The position numbers and the translations under genes are program-made. This document shows positions 1,599-56,061 of a DNA stretch of 64,000 nucleotides, piece after piece. The notes beneath the pieces are model-generated. The model was not told the origin of the DNA. It saw nothing but the letters and a program-made list of their open reading frames with translations, and ran no database searches. Position 1 is the first letter of the stretch. Each line of letters begins with the position of its first letter. The stretch comes from a virus (taxonomy: Duplodnaviria > Caudoviricetes). The DNA is taken from the IMG/VR virus record IMGVR_UViG_3300044620_001883, positions 32,001 through 96,000 of that record, one strand, 5' to 3'.

Positions 1599-1611
1599 TT
1601 ATAGAACTTTG
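1599..1611 (+). promoter_or_regulatory. TTATAGANNTTTG motif copy 1 (candidate phage promoter)
   Basis: TTATAGAACTTTG, intergenic; same motif at 19696 and 37421. Confidence 0.6.
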
Positions 1612-3875: not shown

Positions 3876-4105
3876 CCCCAGAAACTTCCACTATTCACGC
3901 ATCCCATTCCTTCGTGCTGGAGCAGGCGAAGGCCAATATCGCGTTCGTGCGGGCCAACGCCGAGCACGTCGAGCAGGCAAAACAGATCAACGCGTCCCTG
4001 GCCAACATCGTGGCAATGGAACGCAACCTGGTCATGCACAACGCACTGGAACGCGCCAAGCTGAAGGAACTCAATGAAGACATGCAAAAACTGCTCAAGC
4101 ACTGA
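3872..4105 (+). CDS. Coiled-coil hypothetical protein
   Basis: 77 aa, helical heptad pattern. Confidence 0.65.
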   Translation: MTPETSTIHASHSFVLEQAKANIAFVRANAEHVEQAKQINASLANIVAMERNLVMHNALERAKLKELNEDMQKLLKH

Positions 4106-12004: not shown

Positions 12005-13987
12005 ATGGCAACTCATATCCCAACTAAACAAACCAGCCGCCGACTCACCGGTGGCAGTGCAGCAGAAGAACAGATGGACGCAGGCTTCAGCTCTGTGATC
12101 AGCCTATTCCAACCAGGGGTTGAATGGATTCAACCTGGCGACAAACGTGTGAACTTGCAGGTGCGCTTCAAACCGGCCCACGACCCACAGTTGGATCCGC
12201 AGGACCCAGCGTTCAAGCTCTCGGTAGTTCCCTACCGCACCAACTCAATCGACGCGGAATCCGGTCACCCGTTCTTCAGCGCCTGGTATGTGCCGTATCG
12301 TTCGTATCGTTATCTGGGCAACCAGAAACTCTCGTTCGTGTCTCCTATCACACGTGGGGACAGTTATCCCGAAGCGGATCGCACTTGCCCTGTGGTGATG
12401 CTGCTGCGGTATTGCAAGAAACACGCGGAATACGCGCACCTGCTTGAAGAGCGCCCGCGCACTCCTGACAACAAGTACGGTAAGCCAATCCTCCAATGGC
12501 CCGGCACGAGCATGGCTTACAATGTTGTGGCCGCGCATCGTGATCAGCAAACCCCGAAGGACATGCTGCTCACGATTGATCGCGGCGGGCACTTGAACAT
12601 GGTGGATCAGCTGGATCGTGCGACTCCGCGTGCTGCTCCTCCGGACATGCTTTCCCCTACCGGGGCGCCTCTGAATCCCGCGGACCCGCGCTGGAAGCAG
12701 TTTATGCCGCCTCATCTGGTGGACCCCAAGTGGGAACAGTACATGCTCGGCGATATCACAGATCCCGCTCGTGGATTGTTGGCGACAGTGAAGCAAGTTC
12801 AGTCTGGTAACTCTTCCGCAACGCCATGGTGCCCAGTCTTCTCCACGGAGCCCGGTTGGCCCGCTGGTATCGTGCAGTACCCGCTGACACAGCAACAGCT
12901 TGAGAATCGTTACGATCTTCAGTCTGAAGATGTGATTCGCATCGAGCCCTTTCAGCGTCTTGTTGAGATCTTGATCGCCGACGGTTTCTTGCCGCGTGAT
13001 CTGATTGCTGTTGTCTGTGGTGGTATGTGTGACATCCCTGGAGGTGGTGCGCCCTCTCCGACTTACAAGTCGGCTGTCACGGGTTTTGCACAACCGTCCG
13101 ACGACGACATTCCGATGCAGCACCCCGCGCCAGCCCAGCAGGCTCCGGCCTTCGGAGGTCAACAGGCTCCAGCGCCTGCTTACCAAGCCCCAGCTTTCGG
13201 GGACCAGCAGGCTCCGGCCTTCGGAGGTCAACAGGCTCCAGCGCCTGCTTACCAAGCCCCAGCTTTCGGGGGCCAGCAGGCTCCAGTGCCCGCTTATCAG
13301 GCTCCGGCCTTTGGCGGTCAGCAGGCTCCAGTGCCCGCTTATCAGGCTCCAGCCTTTGGAGGTCAGCAGGCTCCAGCCTTTGGAGGTCAGCAGGCTCCCG
13401 CCTTCGGAGGTCAGCAGGCTCCCGCCTTCGGAGGTCAACAGGCTCCAGCGCCTGCTTATCAGGCTCCGGCCTTCGGAGGTCAACAGGCTCCAGCGCCTGC
13501 TTATCAGGCTCCGGCCTTCGGAGGTCAACAGGCTCCGGCCTTCGGTCAACCGGCAACCAGCCCGTTGGGCCATGAAGCGGACACTCCGTTTACGGCACCG
13601 CCTCCACCACCTCCACCTCCGCCTCCGCCTCCACCTCCGCCGCCTCCACCTCCACCTCCCGCGCCCGCCCAGTTTTTCTGGGTTGCTGAAAATGGTGTAA
13701 GTCGTGCGGAGCCGGTGGCACTGCATGACCTGGGCAAATGCCCACCTGAGGTCCGCGTGTGTAGCGTCGTGGATCCAAGTAAGGGGTGGCAGTCAATTGC
13801 AGACGTGCTCGGCACGGGCGTCTCCGTTGAAACCAACGACAGCAGCGCACTGACCGGACCGGAAATGCAGGAGTGGGCGGAACTCGACGCACAGTCGCGA
13901 AACCGCACCATGGACATGCCTGGTGAGCGGCTCATGCGCTTGGGTGCGCTGCAGCAACGGGCAAGGGCAGCAGGGCAATCCCTGTAA
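12005..13987 (+). CDS. Putative gp32-like ssDNA-binding protein with low-complexity tail and GYF_2-like C-terminal domain
   Basis: Lies between polA and recA; GDITDPARG and RYDL segments typical of gp32-like SSBs; repeats; 21 consecutive Pro; FWVAENG..P..L..W..IADV. Confidence 0.55.
   Translation: MATHIPTKQTSRRLTGGSAAEEQMDAGFSSVISLFQPGVEWIQPGDKRVNLQVRFKPAHDPQLDPQDPAFKLSVVPYRTNSIDAESGHPFFSAWYVPYRSYRYLGNQKLSFVSPITRGDSYPEADRTCPVVMLLRYCKKHAEYAHLLEERPRTPDNKYGKPILQWPGTSMAYNVVAAHRDQQTPKDMLLTIDRGGHLNMVDQLDRATPRAAPPDMLSPTGAPLNPADPRWKQFMPPHLVDPKWEQYMLGDITDPARGLLATVKQVQSGNSSATPWCPVFSTEPGWPAGIVQYPLTQQQLENRYDLQSEDVIRIEPFQRLVEILIADGFLPRDLIAVVCGGMCDIPGGGAPSPTYKSAVTGFAQPSDDDIPMQHPAPAQQAPAFGGQQAPAPAYQAPAFGDQQAPAFGGQQAPAPAYQAPAFGGQQAPVPAYQAPAFGGQQAPVPAYQAPAFGGQQAPAFGGQQAPAFGGQQAPAFGGQQAPAPAYQAPAFGGQQAPAPAYQAPAFGGQQAPAFGQPATSPLGHEADTPFTAPPPPPPPPPPPPPPPPPPPPPAPAQFFWVAENGVSRAEPVALHDLGKCPPEVRVCSVVDPSKGWQSIADVLGTGVSVETNDSSALTGPEMQEWAELDAQSRNRTMDMPGERLMRLGALQQRARAAGQSL
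13136..13546 (+). repeat. Coding tandem repeat of 24-nt (QQAPAFGG) and 45-nt (QQAPAPAYQAPAFGG) units
   Basis: 12 units in order A-B-A-B-B-B-A-A-A-B-B-A with synonymous variation. Confidence 0.95.
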
Positions 13988-30476: not shown

Positions 30477-31944
30477 CGTCAAGCAGGCGGACGCTGCTAT
30501 GTTCCCCACCGCAGGGATGCCAGCCCCAGCAGGGATGCCAGCCCCAGCAGCGATGCCAGCCCCAGCAGCGGCTCCCGCCCCTCCCGCCCCTGCCGCCCCT
30601 GTGGGAACCCACGACACTCATGTCAACCCAGGGTTCCTTGCCCGCATGCTGCTTGGAGGTCTGGTCGCCGGCGGCGGGGTAGGACTTCTGACCGCGTTGC
30701 TTCGGCAGCGGAACGCCATCGTGGAGGACAAAAACGAGGCAGCCGATTCTGACTTGGAGCTGCAACTACCGGCGAGACTTCGCAAGCAGGCCTCAGGTTT
30801 TTCTCAACTCATGAACCTGGCGGCCCCCGCCGGGGAGTGGTTCAATGAGAAAATGGCACCGGCTGAGCAGTACGTGCAGTCACCAATGCCCGCGGCAGGA
30901 AAACAACCACTGAGCGTGTGGGACTACATGTTGGGTGGTGCAGCGTTCCCCCTGGCTGCGCTGGGCGGGTTGCAGCTGACACGCAAGGCCTACCAAGGCT
31001 GGCGCGAGCGGGACGTGAAAGACAGGCTTGCGGAACAGCAGTCGCGCTACATGGCGGCGCTGCAGGCCGAAGCTGAAGGTACAAAGGAGGCGGCAGACGG
31101 GCGAGGCTTGAGTATGCCGCAGATCGCCGCTCTTGCGATTGGCGGCATACCGTTACTGACAGCCCTGACGTCGGGCTTGCTGACGGATCGTTTTCTGGAC
31201 CAGCAATTCCCGCTCAAACCCAAGATGCAGGCCCCGGTGAACCGAGTGCGTGTCGGGTTTGGGGAAGACCCGGCAGCAGAGGAGGAGGAAGACACGGAGG
31301 CTTTCAAGAAAGCATCCGACGCCCTGGTACATGTGGCTCTCCAGTTTGAAAAGCTTGCAGCCGATGCCGGTGTCAAAGCCGTCATCGCTGCAGTGGGACA
31401 CGGGATGCTCGATGACCTGGAACGTCATCAGTTCAAATATGGTTCGGACGCCATGCTGGATCTGGCCCAAGGAGCCAACCTTGAGTTGCCGTCGGATCCT
31501 TTGGTCAAGTGCGCAGCTGTGCGGGTCGCGGTGCAGTCTGGTATTGGGCCTGCTCTGATGCTCATGTCTGCCGGTGTTTTCGCTAATGCTGCACCGCACT
31601 GGCGCAAGCAAGGCGCACAGCTGGCGGAGTTCAACAAGACGGCGTCGCAGCTGATTAGTTGTACGGCTTCCGCCCTGGATCTGCATATCGCGGCACTGGC
31701 CGGCGAAGAAGTCATCAAGGCGGCGGCAGCGCAGGCTGCCCCACAAACACCGATGGAACAACTGCGTGCTATGCTTGCCCAACAGGGTGGCGCAGCAACT
31801 ATCGGTAAAGATGACGCGTCGCAAATGCACACGGGTACGCTACAGACGGCAGCCACGGGCTCCCAGTTCAGTGATTCCACACAGCAGGTCAACAGACCGC
31901 AGAACATCAAAGACGATATTGTAGACAACGTCCTGGTTAAATGA
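30445..31944 (+). CDS. Large KxA-motif virion/ejection-type protein
   Basis: 8 K-x-A motifs (KQAD, KQAS, KEAA, KKAS, KLAA, KCAA, KTAS, KAAA); Gly-rich hydrophobic helices. Confidence 0.75.
   Translation: MTQTTPIPNPNVKQADAAMFPTAGMPAPAGMPAPAAMPAPAAAPAPPAPAAPVGTHDTHVNPGFLARMLLGGLVAGGGVGLLTALLRQRNAIVEDKNEAADSDLELQLPARLRKQASGFSQLMNLAAPAGEWFNEKMAPAEQYVQSPMPAAGKQPLSVWDYMLGGAAFPLAALGGLQLTRKAYQGWRERDVKDRLAEQQSRYMAALQAEAEGTKEAADGRGLSMPQIAALAIGGIPLLTALTSGLLTDRFLDQQFPLKPKMQAPVNRVRVGFGEDPAAEEEEDTEAFKKASDALVHVALQFEKLAADAGVKAVIAAVGHGMLDDLERHQFKYGSDAMLDLAQGANLELPSDPLVKCAAVRVAVQSGIGPALMLMSAGVFANAAPHWRKQGAQLAEFNKTASQLISCTASALDLHIAALAGEEVIKAAAAQAAPQTPMEQLRAMLAQQGGAATIGKDDASQMHTGTLQTAATGSQFSDSTQQVNRPQNIKDDIVDNVLVK
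30511..30570 (+). repeat. 18-nt coding repeat (AGMPAP) x3
   Basis: GCAGGGATGCCAGCCCCA tandem copies. Confidence 0.9.
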
Positions 31945-37406: not shown

Positions 37407-37433
37407 CACACACCAACGCGTTATAGAAATTTG
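37400..37433 (+). promoter_or_regulatory. GCAATA-N15-TTATAGANNTTTG motif copy 3
   Basis: GCAATA 37400-05, TTATAGAAATTTG 37421-33. Confidence 0.65.
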
Positions 37434-50742: not shown

Positions 50743-51101
50743 ACGCCCAAGCGGATCACGTGATTCTGATATCACGCGAGGGTGAACCGAGCACGAAGCT
50801 GGAGTTTAGGTGCAGTACAATAACCGCCATGACCATGGAGGAAGTGCTGAGCAGAGTGCAGTCTGCCGTGACGGATTGGATTATTGAGACGGACGAGGGC
50901 AAGCGTGCCTGGCAGGATTCTGTGGAGGACTTTAATGTCGGAGACCTGAGTCTGGAATTATGCGCCCAGCTCCATGAGCATCTCCGTAGCTGGGGTATCT
51001 TGAATGTCTCAGTCTCGTCACCGGACCACGACGTCTGTCCGGCGTGGAACTATGACACCGTGTTGGCTGAACGGTCGCGGTTGGAGGGCCTCGCCTCGTG
51101 A
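50721..51101 (+). CDS. Hypothetical protein
   Basis: 126 aa. Confidence 0.7.
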   Translation: MSQKISLNAQADHVILISREGEPSTKLEFRCSTITAMTMEEVLSRVQSAVTDWIIETDEGKRAWQDSVEDFNVGDLSLELCAQLHEHLRSWGILNVSVSSPDHDVCPAWNYDTVLAERSRLEGLAS

Positions 51102-51775
51102 GCGGTACTGTCGAGTACCCCTTCCTGTACGAGGCCACAGATGCTCAGCTGCAACGATTCTTCATGTTGACGGCCTTTGTGGCGGGTAAACATGCTGGCG
51201 TTCAGCAACGCAAGTTGGACGCCCTGCTGGGTGACTGGCGGGAGCTGTACGGACTGCGCTGTCCCTTCGACTGTTTGTCCATGTTATGGGCCGACGCGCG
51301 AAAGTGTGTTCCGGACAGCGGAGCGGAAGCGCAGCGTGTGGTGAAAGAGGAGCCGGCATTGGTGATCTGGCTACAGCAACACAAGGTTGGTCAGTACGTG
51401 CGCTTGTCGCGGTTGCTGTTCCATGTGGCAGCCAGGCACTATGAGGGGTTGCTGAATCTCCGCACCTGCACACGCGAGGACCTCGTAACGCTTCCCGGTT
51501 ACGGCCTCAAGAGCGCCTCTATGCTCATGCTATTCACACGCCCCGGATTGCAGTTGGCCTGCCTGGATACCCACATCTTACAGTACATGCAGCGCAAACG
51601 CCTGTGTGCTGGGATTCCCAAAACAACTCCTTCCGGTAATGAGTATTTGCGGTTGGAGAAGGCGTTCTTGCATCATTGTGATGAGCTGGGCCGCGTACCG
51701 GCAGAACTGGACTTCGAGATCTGGAAAGAAAACTCAGTGACGATGCGTGGACAAAAGTTCCTGACAGAGCTATGA
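51098..51775 (+). CDS. HhH-GPD-type DNA glycosylase (Ogg-like)
   Basis: LVTLPGYGLKSAS (HhH with Lys), LACLDTHI (catalytic Asp), YLRLE..F..ELDFEIW. Confidence 0.75.
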   Translation: MSGTVEYPFLYEATDAQLQRFFMLTAFVAGKHAGVQQRKLDALLGDWRELYGLRCPFDCLSMLWADARKCVPDSGAEAQRVVKEEPALVIWLQQHKVGQYVRLSRLLFHVAARHYEGLLNLRTCTREDLVTLPGYGLKSASMLMLFTRPGLQLACLDTHILQYMQRKRLCAGIPKTTPSGNEYLRLEKAFLHHCDELGRVPAELDFEIWKENSVTMRGQKFLTEL

Positions 51776-52293: not shown

Positions 52294-52757
52294 CCTCCCC
52301 ACCTATTCCCGCAGGGCTTCCTCCCGAGGAAGCCATTAAACGAGTGCTGACGGATCAACTCGATCAGCCGGAGTGCTGGGCCAAAGCCCTCGTGAATCTT
52401 TCGGAGTTAGACAGAGAGTGCCAAGTGGACGCCCTGGTTATGCTGCAGCTGGCGCAGCCCATAAGACAGTTTCTGCATCAGGTCGCGGGGGGCAATTCGG
52501 AAATCAATCAGACGATGCGGCGAGCTCGTATGTTCTTGTACGCGCTGAGCCTCAAACCTGGTACGGTTACTCTGGGTATGCATCCGGACAAACAAGGGCA
52601 TGTGTTGACCCTCAAACTGGACTTGGGTGCGGTTCCTCTGCTGGAGGAGTTCTATGAGGAGGAAGACAAGGCGCAGGCGCTTGACGAATACGCGCTACTG
52701 ACGGAACTGAGAATGCCGGCCAATGCCTTGCACACCACGCACGACAAGGACGCATGA
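52290..52757 (+). CDS. Hypothetical protein
   Basis: ATGA overlaps. Confidence 0.7.
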   Translation: MTSPPIPAGLPPEEAIKRVLTDQLDQPECWAKALVNLSELDRECQVDALVMLQLAQPIRQFLHQVAGGNSEINQTMRRARMFLYALSLKPGTVTLGMHPDKQGHVLTLKLDLGAVPLLEEFYEEEDKAQALDEYALLTELRMPANALHTTHDKDA

Positions 52758-54808
52758 GCACACCCACTACACCCGCACAAGTACGAGACCGCATTGAGGT
52801 TCTCAGGAAGCAGATTGAAGATGCCGCTAACTGGTACTACCAGGTGGGGCGGCCCGTGATATCAGACCAGGAATACGACAAGCTGTTCCGAGAACTGCAG
52901 ATCTACGAAGCGAGCTATCCGGAACTCCTGACGCCGGCGTCCCCAACGCAGCGCATCCTGCAGCAACCCCTGAAGGGCTTTGCTTCCTGCATGCGCCAGA
53001 TCCCAATGCTCAGCCTCGCGAATGCCTACGAGGACAAGGATATCAAGACATTCTTGGAGCGTTGCGTGAAAACAATCGGGACGCAGGACACGCCAGCCTA
53101 CTTGGTGGAGCCGAAGGTGGATGGTCTCTCCGTGGAGCTGTACTACAACCATGGTATTTTGACGCGCGCCCTGACCCGTGGTGACGGTATCACGGGTGAT
53201 GATGTGACGGCCCAGGTCAGGACGATTCGTAGCGTCCCGCTGCAACTCAAGAGCACTACCGGCTTCCTGCACCCGGATGAGATGGTGTTTCGTGGGGAAG
53301 TGTACATGTCGCGGGATACATTCCAGCTGCTCAATGCACAGCGTGTCGCCGCCGGGGAAGAGGAATGGGCAAACCCCCGCAATGCTGCCGTGGGAGCCCT
53401 CAAGCAGCTGGACCCGCGTGAGACCTCCAAGCGGCGTCTGGACTGTGTCATCTACGAGTTGCTGGAATGTGACAGCTGGGTCTGTCAGACAACCCTCCAT
53501 GATCAGTTCCGCTGCATGGGCCTGCCGACCTTTCCTCCGCATGTCCTGTACCGCACACGCCAACCCACCGTCGAGCAGACCTTGGTGTCTCTGAAGGATG
53601 CGCTGGCGCAGCTGCAGAGTGAGCGTGGTACGTTGCCCTTCGACATCGATGGCGCGGTGATCAAGCTTGATCAGCGGAATCTCCGCCGACTGCTTGGCAC
53701 CAACAAGACAGCCCCGCTCTGGGCCGCGGCCTTCAAGTACCCACCCGAGGAAGCCAAGACCGTCCTGAATTCCGTGACGGTCCAGATGGGCAAGAACGGT
53801 GTCCTGACGCCCGTGGCGGAACTCCGTGCCGTGAAGCTTGCTGGTTCCACGATTCGGCGCGCGACCCTCCACAACTATGTGGATGTCGCCGCGAAGGACA
53901 TCCGGGTCGGGGACCATGTGATCATTGCAAAAGCAGCAGAAATCATACCGCAGGTCTTACGGCCGATTCTGGACAAGCGCACAGGCGACTGTTCCAAGAT
54001 CTTCGCCCCAACGGAGTGTCCGTTCTGCGGCTCCCCCACAGGCAAGTCTGAGGAAGAGGCGGTGGCAATCCGTTGCACCAACTATGATTGCCCGGAGTGG
54101 TTCAAGCAACGTCTCTGCTACTTTGTATCCAAGGCCGCTTTGGATGTTGAGGGAATGGGACCGTCCACTATTGAGGCGATTTTGACGCATCTGCCGCGCG
54201 TGAAACGGTACGCAGATCTGTTCCTGCTTGGCATCCCCGAGTTGGATCGGTGCGGGCTAGGGGAGAAGCAGGCCAGCAATACCGTCAAGGCACTCGCGAC
54301 GGCACGTCAACGCGCAGCCCAGGAGCAAGACCGGGTTATCCGGGGACTCTGTATCCCGCAGGTTGGCAACACGGCATCGAGGGCGCTCGTGACACACTTT
54401 GGCAGTATCCCAGCAATCCTGGCCGCCGCCGACCAGGATATCCTGTCCTGTCCGGATATGCTCCCTGTGGCTGCCGCAGCCTTCCTGGCCTGGCGGCAAG
54501 ACACCGAGAAGGTGCGGGACATTGATCTGCTGGGTTTGGTCGGCTTCGAGTTCCCGGAAGCCACGCGGGAGATCAAAGGTAACACCTTGGAGGGTGAAAT
54601 CTGGGTCATCACCGGCACCCTGACGGTCCCACGTGAGATCGCAGCGGCGATGATCAGGGCCCACGGAGGCAAGGTGGCATCGGGGGTGACCAAGAACACG
54701 ACCCGGTTGCTCGCCGGTGACAAGGCAGGCTCGAAACTCGACAAGGCCGCGAAGCTGGGTGTCATGGTGGTAACCGAAGAAGAGTTCCGGACGCGCATTG
54801 GAGCTTGA
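52754..54808 (+). CDS. ligA: NAD-dependent DNA ligase
   Basis: EPKVDG, TRGDG, RGEVYM, NPRNAA, DIDGAVIK, AFKY, C4 Zn finger, HhH, BRCT. Confidence 0.97.
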   Translation: MSTPTTPAQVRDRIEVLRKQIEDAANWYYQVGRPVISDQEYDKLFRELQIYEASYPELLTPASPTQRILQQPLKGFASCMRQIPMLSLANAYEDKDIKTFLERCVKTIGTQDTPAYLVEPKVDGLSVELYYNHGILTRALTRGDGITGDDVTAQVRTIRSVPLQLKSTTGFLHPDEMVFRGEVYMSRDTFQLLNAQRVAAGEEEWANPRNAAVGALKQLDPRETSKRRLDCVIYELLECDSWVCQTTLHDQFRCMGLPTFPPHVLYRTRQPTVEQTLVSLKDALAQLQSERGTLPFDIDGAVIKLDQRNLRRLLGTNKTAPLWAAAFKYPPEEAKTVLNSVTVQMGKNGVLTPVAELRAVKLAGSTIRRATLHNYVDVAAKDIRVGDHVIIAKAAEIIPQVLRPILDKRTGDCSKIFAPTECPFCGSPTGKSEEEAVAIRCTNYDCPEWFKQRLCYFVSKAALDVEGMGPSTIEAILTHLPRVKRYADLFLLGIPELDRCGLGEKQASNTVKALATARQRAAQEQDRVIRGLCIPQVGNTASRALVTHFGSIPAILAAADQDILSCPDMLPVAAAAFLAWRQDTEKVRDIDLLGLVGFEFPEATREIKGNTLEGEIWVITGTLTVPREIAAAMIRAHGGKVASGVTKNTTRLLAGDKAGSKLDKAAKLGVMVVTEEEFRTRIGA

Positions 54809-54833
54809 TTGGATACGCACGTCGTGTCATTCT
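54805..54833 (+). promoter_or_regulatory. Possible sigma70-type promoter
   Basis: TTGATT-N17-CATTCT with TG extension; predicted +1 at A54840, where a 12-bp hairpin begins. Confidence 0.35.
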
Positions 54834-54839
54834 CATTTT

Positions 54840-55052
54840 ATCTGCGGCTAGTGCTCCCCTAGCTGCAGATGCACCACCAGCAGGTGTGCAGTGTCGGAAG
54901 CGTTTTCCTGCAACCTTTCCCTGAGTGGTTACAGGGTTTCACGTATTGTCCCTGCACGCGCAATAAACCGCGGCAGGGTTTCCGATCAGAACAGCTGGCG
55001 TTTATTAAACAGGACTGGCAGGTGCTCCCTCACACCTGCCAGTCCATTTTTC
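54840..55052 (+). ncRNA. Structured RNA / attenuator-like leader L4
   Basis: 12-bp 5' stem, two CCCTG/CAGGG-TTTC stems, 13-bp terminal stem; GTGCTCCC in both the first and last loops. Confidence 0.55.
55012..55052 (+). terminator. Intrinsic terminator
   Basis: GGACTGGCAGGTG/CACCTGCCAGTCC perfect 13 bp + ATTTTTC. Confidence 0.8.
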
Positions 55053-55060
55053 ATATTTAC

Positions 55061-55303
55061 ATGGGCAGAACTAGAATGAGCAGAGACGTCCGGTACTTTG
55101 TGCTGGGTTGGGTGTGCGTGTTGGTTGGTATGGTTCCTTGGGCGGTGCTGCTGGCCGACTCTTCCGGCGCCGTGTTTGGCATGTTGTGCGTCGTGGGGCA
55201 GATCGCAGGGGCCTGTGTGGGTTTTTGGCTCATCTACAAAGCGCACACGTGGCGTGAACCAGAACCGAAGAAAGAACGTCCAAACAACGAAAAATGGTCA
55301 TGA
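55061..55303 (+). CDS. Small 2-TM membrane protein
   Basis: ATG 55061 or 55076; two hydrophobic helices and a charged tail. Confidence 0.65.
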   Translation: MGRTRMSRDVRYFVLGWVCVLVGMVPWAVLLADSSGAVFGMLCVVGQIAGACVGFWLIYKAHTWREPEPKKERPNNEKWS

Positions 55304-56061
55304 CTTATCGCATTGAACAGATCACTAAATTTGTGGACCGCATGCATGCGATCCTGGCAGACGATTCAGTTGAACGCATTGAGCTCACCAAAGAGGAGTA
55401 CACGGCGCAGGAACTCTCCGTTATCCTTAACACCTACCTGGCTGAGGCGCAGACATCCCAGCAGCGGGCTGCGATGCTTGAGGAGCTGGCGGAGCTGGCC
55501 ACGCAAGCAGCGGCATCAATCACGCTGACGGCAAAAACTGCGGCGCTGTTGTTTGCGATCAACCACACCGTCACGACTTGTTCAACCATGGTAGATGCCA
55601 TAGATCAAGCATTGAAGCTCGGTGTGCATGCCCGCCGCGCCGCCCTGGAGCTGACAGCACAGGGGATCGCAACAGAGCTGCGGAATATTCACGCGGACCT
55701 CTCGGTAATCGCGAAGGATGGTGAACTGTCGGCTGCGCGTCAACCTGAGGAAGTCACGTGGGTGCCGCTAGCACGCGTGCTGGCAGTCCTGAACCACCCG
55801 AACTTCTACTGGGGCAACACCAACATGGCGGCGACAGCCAAGTACCTGGAACTCCGGATCGACACCCGGGACAACCACTGCGTGGTCATGGACGCAAAGC
55901 ATAAGCTCCTGGACATCAAGCACCTCGAGGAGGCCTGCCTGAAGTTCTATGTGCCGAACATGAACGAGAATGTGTGTCCCCGTGAAAAGGGACCCAAGGC
56001 GTTGATCTCAGACACGCAAACCGAACCAGCATCGGACCATGGACCTGATCCAGTCACGTAA
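55300..56061 (+). CDS. Coiled-coil hypothetical protein
   Basis: ATGA overlap. Confidence 0.75.
   Translation: MTYRIEQITKFVDRMHAILADDSVERIELTKEEYTAQELSVILNTYLAEAQTSQQRAAMLEELAELATQAAASITLTAKTAALLFAINHTVTTCSTMVDAIDQALKLGVHARRAALELTAQGIATELRNIHADLSVIAKDGELSAARQPEEVTWVPLARVLAVLNHPNFYWGNTNMAATAKYLELRIDTRDNHCVVMDAKHKLLDIKHLEEACLKFYVPNMNENVCPREKGPKALISDTQTEPASDHGPDPVT

Follow-up and report, generated by a model that had tools for sequence, protein, structure and literature searches.

The window, a stretch of 64,000 nt, is part of a 121-kb virus record that is 59% complete; proteins identical to its own are found on contigs of up to 200 kb. We examined the 252-nt gap 3' of the NAD-dependent DNA ligase gene together with the small ORF that follows it. 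The gap holds a predicted RNA of about 212 nt (54840-55051), which heads a co-directional gene run of about 24 kb. The features of the locus are as follows.

52754..54808, plus strand: NAD-dependent DNA ligase gene (PHROG 3869, E 1.6e-154); its last bases overlap the -35 box
54805..54833, plus strand: predicted sigma70-like promoter (-35 at 54805-10, 17-nt spacer, -10 at 54828-33, +1 at 54840)
54840..54870, plus strand: P0, 5' hairpin (pair probability 0.94), abutting the pseudoknot
54871..54889, plus strand: stem S1 (54871-74 with 54886-89), 2-nt loop (54875-76) and 5' strand of stem S2 (54877-85)
54893..54986, plus strand: domain within the long loop, with P2 (54893-99 with 54980-86), P3 and P4
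54987..54999, plus strand: A-rich junction, 3' strand of S2 (54990-98; outer 5 bp at 54994-98) and linker C (54999)
55000..55006, plus strand: 3' tail, pairing with the P4 loop (54962-68) as a second pseudoknot
55012..55051, plus strand: terminator hairpin of 13 bp (-26 kcal/mol) with its U tail, at which the RNA is predicted to end
55061..55303, plus strand: small hydrophobic ORF of 80 aa (or 75 from 55076) with two hydropathy peaks
55300..56061, plus strand: 253-aa orphan gene d1, immediately downstream of the RNA in six of eight sequences

The closest named cellular ligases are verrucomicrobial (42-43% identity), which may be a weak hint to the host. Upstream of the ligase, this clade invariably carries an Ogg/HhH-type glycosylase-like gene (window 51098-51775; assigned to Pfam PF22175 in the relatives). 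In one relative the ligase is split after about residue 438 by a LAGLIDADG endonuclease ORF, intron- or intein-like, that is not in the window (L002:762-3726). The orphan gene d1 has no Pfam, PHROG or PDB match and no clear fold match: its predicted structure (pLDDT 86, pTM 0.46), queried as a whole, returned generic helices only. The C-terminal 75-residue domain of d1 (about residues 150-226; window 55750-55980) recurs in about 55 small unnamed proteins with an invariant W, P, K-Y, D-T-R-D and N-E-N, and is without a Pfam family. Elsewhere in the window, ARAGORN calls a tRNA-Ser(GGA) at 31387-31463 within a 534-codon ORF, a call that may be spurious, and the ORF at 12005-13987 contains long low-complexity repeats and a proline tract (13115-13665).

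Relatives were gathered through the ligase and d1, yielding seven further distinct versions of the locus. The resulting eight sequences represent five phage lineages: the window with L001, L002 with L005, L006 with L007, L008 (to which L093 is nearly identical), and L105. Over the core, which is about 100-140 nt long, the seven relatives are 76, 70, 71, 54, 53, 53 and 50% identical to the window. The RNA lies between the ligase and d1 in all of them. The ligase gene is immediately 5' of it in seven of the eight, and d1 is separated from it in two. The small membrane gene that the preliminary description placed after the terminator is not a conserved downstream partner: it is found only in the phage of the window, is missing between the RNA and the next gene in the relatives and has no homologue among the fetched loci. 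By this comparison the small hydrophobic ORF is a lineage-specific insertion outside the RNA.

The region folds far better than its shuffles (z -6.3), and both G-U pairs and the U tail indicate the plus strand. All eight sequences have the same layout: a promoter-like site, a 5' hairpin, an H-type pseudoknot, a second pseudoknot, a terminator-like hairpin, and the next gene. As compared across these relatives, the element is a real and conserved non-coding structured RNA with a predicted double-pseudoknot fold; both pseudoknots, the conserved core, were absent from the preliminary description. The H-type pseudoknot spans 54871-54998 and carries a three-way junction in its long loop. This junction is closed by P2 and includes P3 (54900-54944), which is variable, and P4 (54950-78), which has an 8-nt loop (54961-68). 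P0 is a 12-bp hairpin (54840-51/54859-70, one G-U) that varies in sequence and length, with leaders of 14-63 nt, and is weak in L006-L008.

S1 is Watson-Crick in 32/32 cells, with three of its four pairs compensatory, and the 2-nt loop between the S1 and S2 strands is Y-A in 8/8. Outer S2 (54877-81 with 54994-98) is paired in 40/40 cells, four of five pairs being compensatory; S2 reaches 9 bp in L008 and L105, and in the window its inner 4 bp contain A.A and G.A mismatches. P2 is paired in 48/48 cells and compensatory in 6/6 pairs, while P4 changes on both sides in five of eight pairs. The preliminary description had proposed covariation as a check, and the check came out in favor of structure: over S1, S2 and P2, with helices anchored by hand and five independent lineages behind the count, 120/120 cells are paired and 13/15 pairs show compensatory change. 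An untouched MAFFT alignment of seven sequences has 91% of cells paired and 13 pairs with change on both sides. That pairing is reached by 0/500 shuffles and compares with 27-43% in slid controls, in statistics that ignore relatedness. The S1/S2 segment (54871-54889) is 100% identical between L001 and the window versus 54-59% in its flanks. About eight bases in all are invariant, at the S1/S2 stem junction; the linker C at 54999 is invariant.

The second pseudoknot, between the P4 loop and the 3' tail, is 7 bp in the window and L001, 6 bp in L006 and L007, and 8 bp in L008, with differing sequences (shuffled-tail fractions 0.002-0.02). It is 5 bp in L002 and L005 (shuffled-tail fraction 0.13), and the tail partner in L105 is ambiguous (0.054). 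Compensatory counts for this helix were set aside because picking the best match inflates them.

A promoter site like that of the window is present in 8/8 sequences with the best or second-best score. The shared pattern is a -35 box led by TTG (7/8), a spacer of 16-17 nt, a -10 box with A2 and T6, and a purine +1 that lies 7 nt after the -10 box. Derived from these same eight sequences, the pattern has a frequency in the genome of about one per 6 kb on each strand. The predicted +1 coincides with the opening base of the 5' hairpin in the window (54840), L001, L002, L005 and L105. The sigma70-like promoter with its +1 on a 12-bp hairpin, already noticed in the preliminary description, thus gains backing from conservation in 8/8, though a consensus scan missed this weak promoter. 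The phage encodes its own beta-like gene. A 12-base promoter-like word occurs at window 1599-1610 and 37421-37432 and nowhere else in the 121-kb piece; this phage early-promoter word was rejected as the promoter of the RNA since it is not upstream of it. Also rejected was a G-rich stretch upstream that could pair with the start of the pseudoknot, as it precedes the predicted +1 in L002, L005-L007 and L105.

At the 3' end, the perfect 13-bp terminator reported 9-15 nt before a small gene was confirmed in the sequence: a hairpin of 55012-24/55033-45 followed by a 5-U tail, with the ATG at 55061 lying 15 nt past the hairpin and 9 nt past the U tail. All eight sequences have a terminator-like hairpin of 10-14 bp that starts 0-5 nt after the 3' tail and ends 9-31 nt 5' of the next start codon; the relatives measure 149-235 nt to the hairpin end. 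The eight nucleotides after the hairpin contain 5, 3, 6, 6, 6, 6, 6 and 0 U residues in the eight sequences: six have a good U tail, L001 has a poor one and L105 has none. Between hairpin and ATG no promoter-like site was found in 6/8, and the plus strand has no other strong terminator until about 79087.

We also examined how widely the RNA is distributed. A topology descriptor, built from the same eight sequences, has the true site as its sole match on both strands of its own genome piece (242 kb) and locates the L105 element at the syntenic place, where the stems are rewritten. Its background is two matches in 1.54 Mb of unrelated loci and one in 29 Mb of simulated sequence. The covariance model R1 finds one copy in its own genome piece and misses L105, so its negatives are weak, including the lack of a match in 151 genomes from the phylum (PVC) of a Lentisphaerales MAG. 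Rfam 15 gives no match in the window at the gathering threshold and only miRNA/lncRNA noise (E 0.2-5) at E-value thresholds, and no match on six homologous loci. A blastn search of cultured phages returned chance matches only. In pattern scans of IMG/VR, JGI metagenomes and GTDB every match examined was due to chance, the patterns being blind to L105-like members. The RNA has so far been found in one phage clade and not elsewhere by these searches; they are sequence-led, so distant members would be missed. We found no description of it in the literature, where the supplement of the phage structured-RNA catalogue (PMC10690425) lay outside our comparison. The motif is apparently undescribed and belongs to a general kind of structured RNA that is already known.

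The nearest likeness in wiring is the preQ1-III riboswitch (Rfam RF02680; PMC11625349, PMC11602147). In both, a 5' strand pairs with the junction to form a pseudoknot with two hairpins in its long loop, the second of which pairs through its own loop with the 3' tail, and the core is about 100-140 nt. However, the preQ1-III pocket (A-A ceiling, specificity C, U-A-U major-groove triples) and the A-C-U-U junction are absent in the phage RNA, which has a 2-nt Y-A loop and a G-C-rich crossed stem in 8/8 as well as the extra closing stem P2. Its tail is not a Shine-Dalgarno sequence, a terminator comes next, and the downstream genes are orphans with no queT. With pocket and queT absent and no Rfam match, the phage RNA is not a member of the preQ1-III family. 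The raiA motif likewise has about 200 nt, two pseudoknots and variable peripheral stems, but also a long conserved closing P1, a four-way junction and strong sequence conservation in >2700 species (PMC10861870, PMC12968392); the phage RNA has no closing stem and different pseudoknot wiring, is found in one phage clade only, and is not a raiA RNA. Likenesses to RNase P, the hairpin and HDV ribozymes, tmRNA and minus-strand CsrB-type GGA loops were rejected on strand order or non-conservation.

Type III toxin-antitoxin and AbiF loci resemble the locus in layout: a promoter, a structured RNA, an intrinsic terminator, and a gene without its own promoter (bioRxiv 10.1101/2025.04.15.648962). Type III antitoxins are pseudoknots, and with this layout the loci give abundant RNA plus read-through, RCd22 accumulating over the abiF read-through mRNA (bioRxiv 10.1101/2025.04.15.648962). 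The phage RNA differs in having a single body of 100-140 nt rather than 36-nt repeats or abiF motifs; neither tandem 35-60-nt repeats nor abiF motifs were found in the region, nor any Rfam match, and for want of repeats it is not a type III antitoxin. Its downstream gene is not fixed and does not appear to be ToxN/AbiF-like: searched as a whole for likeness to ToxN/CptN/TenpN/AbiF-type RNases, d1 gave no Pfam, PHROG or PDB sequence match, and fold comparison gave generic helices only.

By analogy with these loci, the reading we prefer, at about even confidence, is that the element may be a discrete RNA recognized by its shape and made in excess over the downstream mRNA. From the compared fold and layout we infer a transcript, with the ends given above, that would accumulate and act in trans on a protein partner. 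A sigma70-like promoter overlapping the ligase stop would produce the RNA of about 212 nt and head a transcription unit. The body would be a compact double pseudoknot with a hairpin at either end, of which the 3' hairpin may stop or trim most transcripts, leaving the RNA in excess, while a fixed leak past it would feed the downstream orphan genes. The RNA would then most likely act in trans by virtue of its three-dimensional form, serving some protein or machine of phage or host as scaffold or decoy, and not by base pairing with mRNA. Action through shape is suggested by pairing that persists although no more than about eight bases, close to the stem junction, are invariant. Consistent with a discrete RNA, no conserved switch was found in the eight sequences under nested folding. 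In L105, which has no U tail, and L001, whose U tail is poor, the RNA is therefore probably also a 5' leader. Against this reading, a transcriptional riboswitch would have just the same layout, and d1 matches neither an RNase nor an RNA-binding fold.

A transcriptional attenuator, either a riboswitch or a protein-sensing leader, is a possible but clearly less probable explanation. The double-pseudoknot aptamer would gate the terminator and so control the downstream orphan genes. Its order of promoter, aptamer, terminator and ATG is present, with the terminator 0-5 nt past the tail, a U tail lacking in L105 and weak in L001, and wiring like that of preQ1-III (PMC11625349); the S1/S2 junction, the ligand site in such aptamers, holds the invariant bases. 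The antiterminator pairing of the preliminary description does exist, as a duplex of 9 bp interrupted by a 1x2 loop (-12.1 kcal/mol), and the alternative pairing of the window, at -9.7, is on a par with the closing of S2 (-5.8) plus S1. In context, though, it does not beat shuffled arms (p 0.14), and it occurs in the window and L001 only, which have the same terminator arm. Conservation of the alternative pairing and of the loops had been set as a test; neither is conserved. When the whole nascent RNA was folded, capture of the terminator left arm against shuffled arms gave p values of 0.14, 0.47, 0.60, 0.37, 0.98, 0.63, 0.003 and 0.90. Capture thus is no better than with shuffled arms in 7/8 (p 0.14-0.98; Fisher 0.09), and beats them in 1/8 in context and 2/8 in a restricted test, under a nested folding model that ignores pseudoknots. 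Since this model cannot form pseudoknots, the result lowers the likelihood of a switch rather than excluding one. The one sequence in which the 5' leader captures the terminator arm is L008, where a short leader has 8 bp of complementarity to the left arm (L008:3811-3824 and 3927-3935; p 0.003), a possible lineage-specific antiterminator. The window and L008 cases imply opposite switching logic. The attenuator is further disfavored by an invariant set of bases that is very small for a small-molecule pocket, the lack of a U tail in L105, downstream genes that vary, and the failure of R1, a weak test, to find a copy in the 151 PVC-phylum genomes.

A bolder and more tentative proposal is a new phage class of ligand-binding RNA, in which the pseudoknot-stem junction would be a small-molecule pocket and the RNA would gate the downstream genes or soak up a signal. 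Candidate ligands would be, for example, a host-defence nucleotide signal or an NAD-related metabolite.

A purely cis-acting role is doubtful. The element would be a put-like, polymerase-binding antiterminator, or else a nuclease block or elaborate terminator that stabilizes and rations mRNA. Its ring-like loop-tail pseudoknot resembles exonuclease-resistant RNAs, and it sits between promoter and terminator at the head of the gene run. Phage HK022 putL also lies just downstream of its promoter, and put, like the phage RNA, is 5' of a terminator (PMC9378689). Yet put is made up of a pair of stem-loops, about 70 nt in length, and has a triplex, with no pseudoknot mentioned (PMC9378689); no series of downstream terminators is seen here, and the phage RNA is not a put RNA. 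As no further strong same-strand terminator occurs until about 79087, processive antitermination would have little role, and a conserved double pseudoknot is superfluous for a plain terminator.

It is improbable that the element is a new self-cleaving or otherwise catalytic RNA. Compact nested pseudoknots, strong covariation and an intergenic location in a phage might suggest one, but ribozyme families in Rfam give no match, the strand order is one we take to be incompatible with HDV-like, twister, pistol and hairpin ribozymes, and an RNA with its own promoter and terminator makes cleavage unnecessary.

Very improbable is an antisense sRNA whose C-rich loops block ribosome-binding sites in the manner of RNAIII/RsaE, the trans-acting role offered in the preliminary description. 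The window does have two C-rich hairpin apexes, and its two related stems are followed by the same 9-mer (54932, 54974), but this 9-mer is in 0/7 relatives, and neither the twin GUGCUCCC loops nor the CAGGGUUUC repeats are conserved across homologues. The 8-mer placed in the first and last loops does occur twice; the terminator copy has its first three bases in the stem, not the loop, and any repeated 8-mer arises in 26% of shuffles of the RNA. As a conserved unpaired C-rich loop the motif is absent in 7/7 homologues. The pseudoknot stems lock up the conserved bases, and antisense matches within the genome piece reach 12 nt at most. The sRNA reading is thus largely refuted through non-conservation. 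What stands of the earlier proposal is a structured RNA that has a promoter and a terminator of its own, together with the choice 'switch or trans-acting RNA'; the Shine-Dalgarno-targeting loops and the specific antiterminator are not supported. Equally remote are chance hairpins, refuted by the covariation and the descriptor null, and a 144-codon gene (54869-55303), which gene callers list but which stop codons interrupt in L001 and other relatives, no reading frame being conserved through the RNA across homologues.

It is rare to find a new RNA fold that contains two covarying pseudoknots, and such folds have frequently proved to be riboswitches, ribozymes or protein-binding RNAs. The small core (100-140 nt), the natural minimal variants L008 and L105, and the defined ends mean that this one can be made and tested at once. 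L105 illustrates that sequence-based models overlook members at 50% identity. To our knowledge such RNAs have hardly been described in the lytic-type giant phage clade to which this one belongs. In an uncultured giant phage and seven relatives, a knotted shape has been kept even where about half of the sequence has changed.
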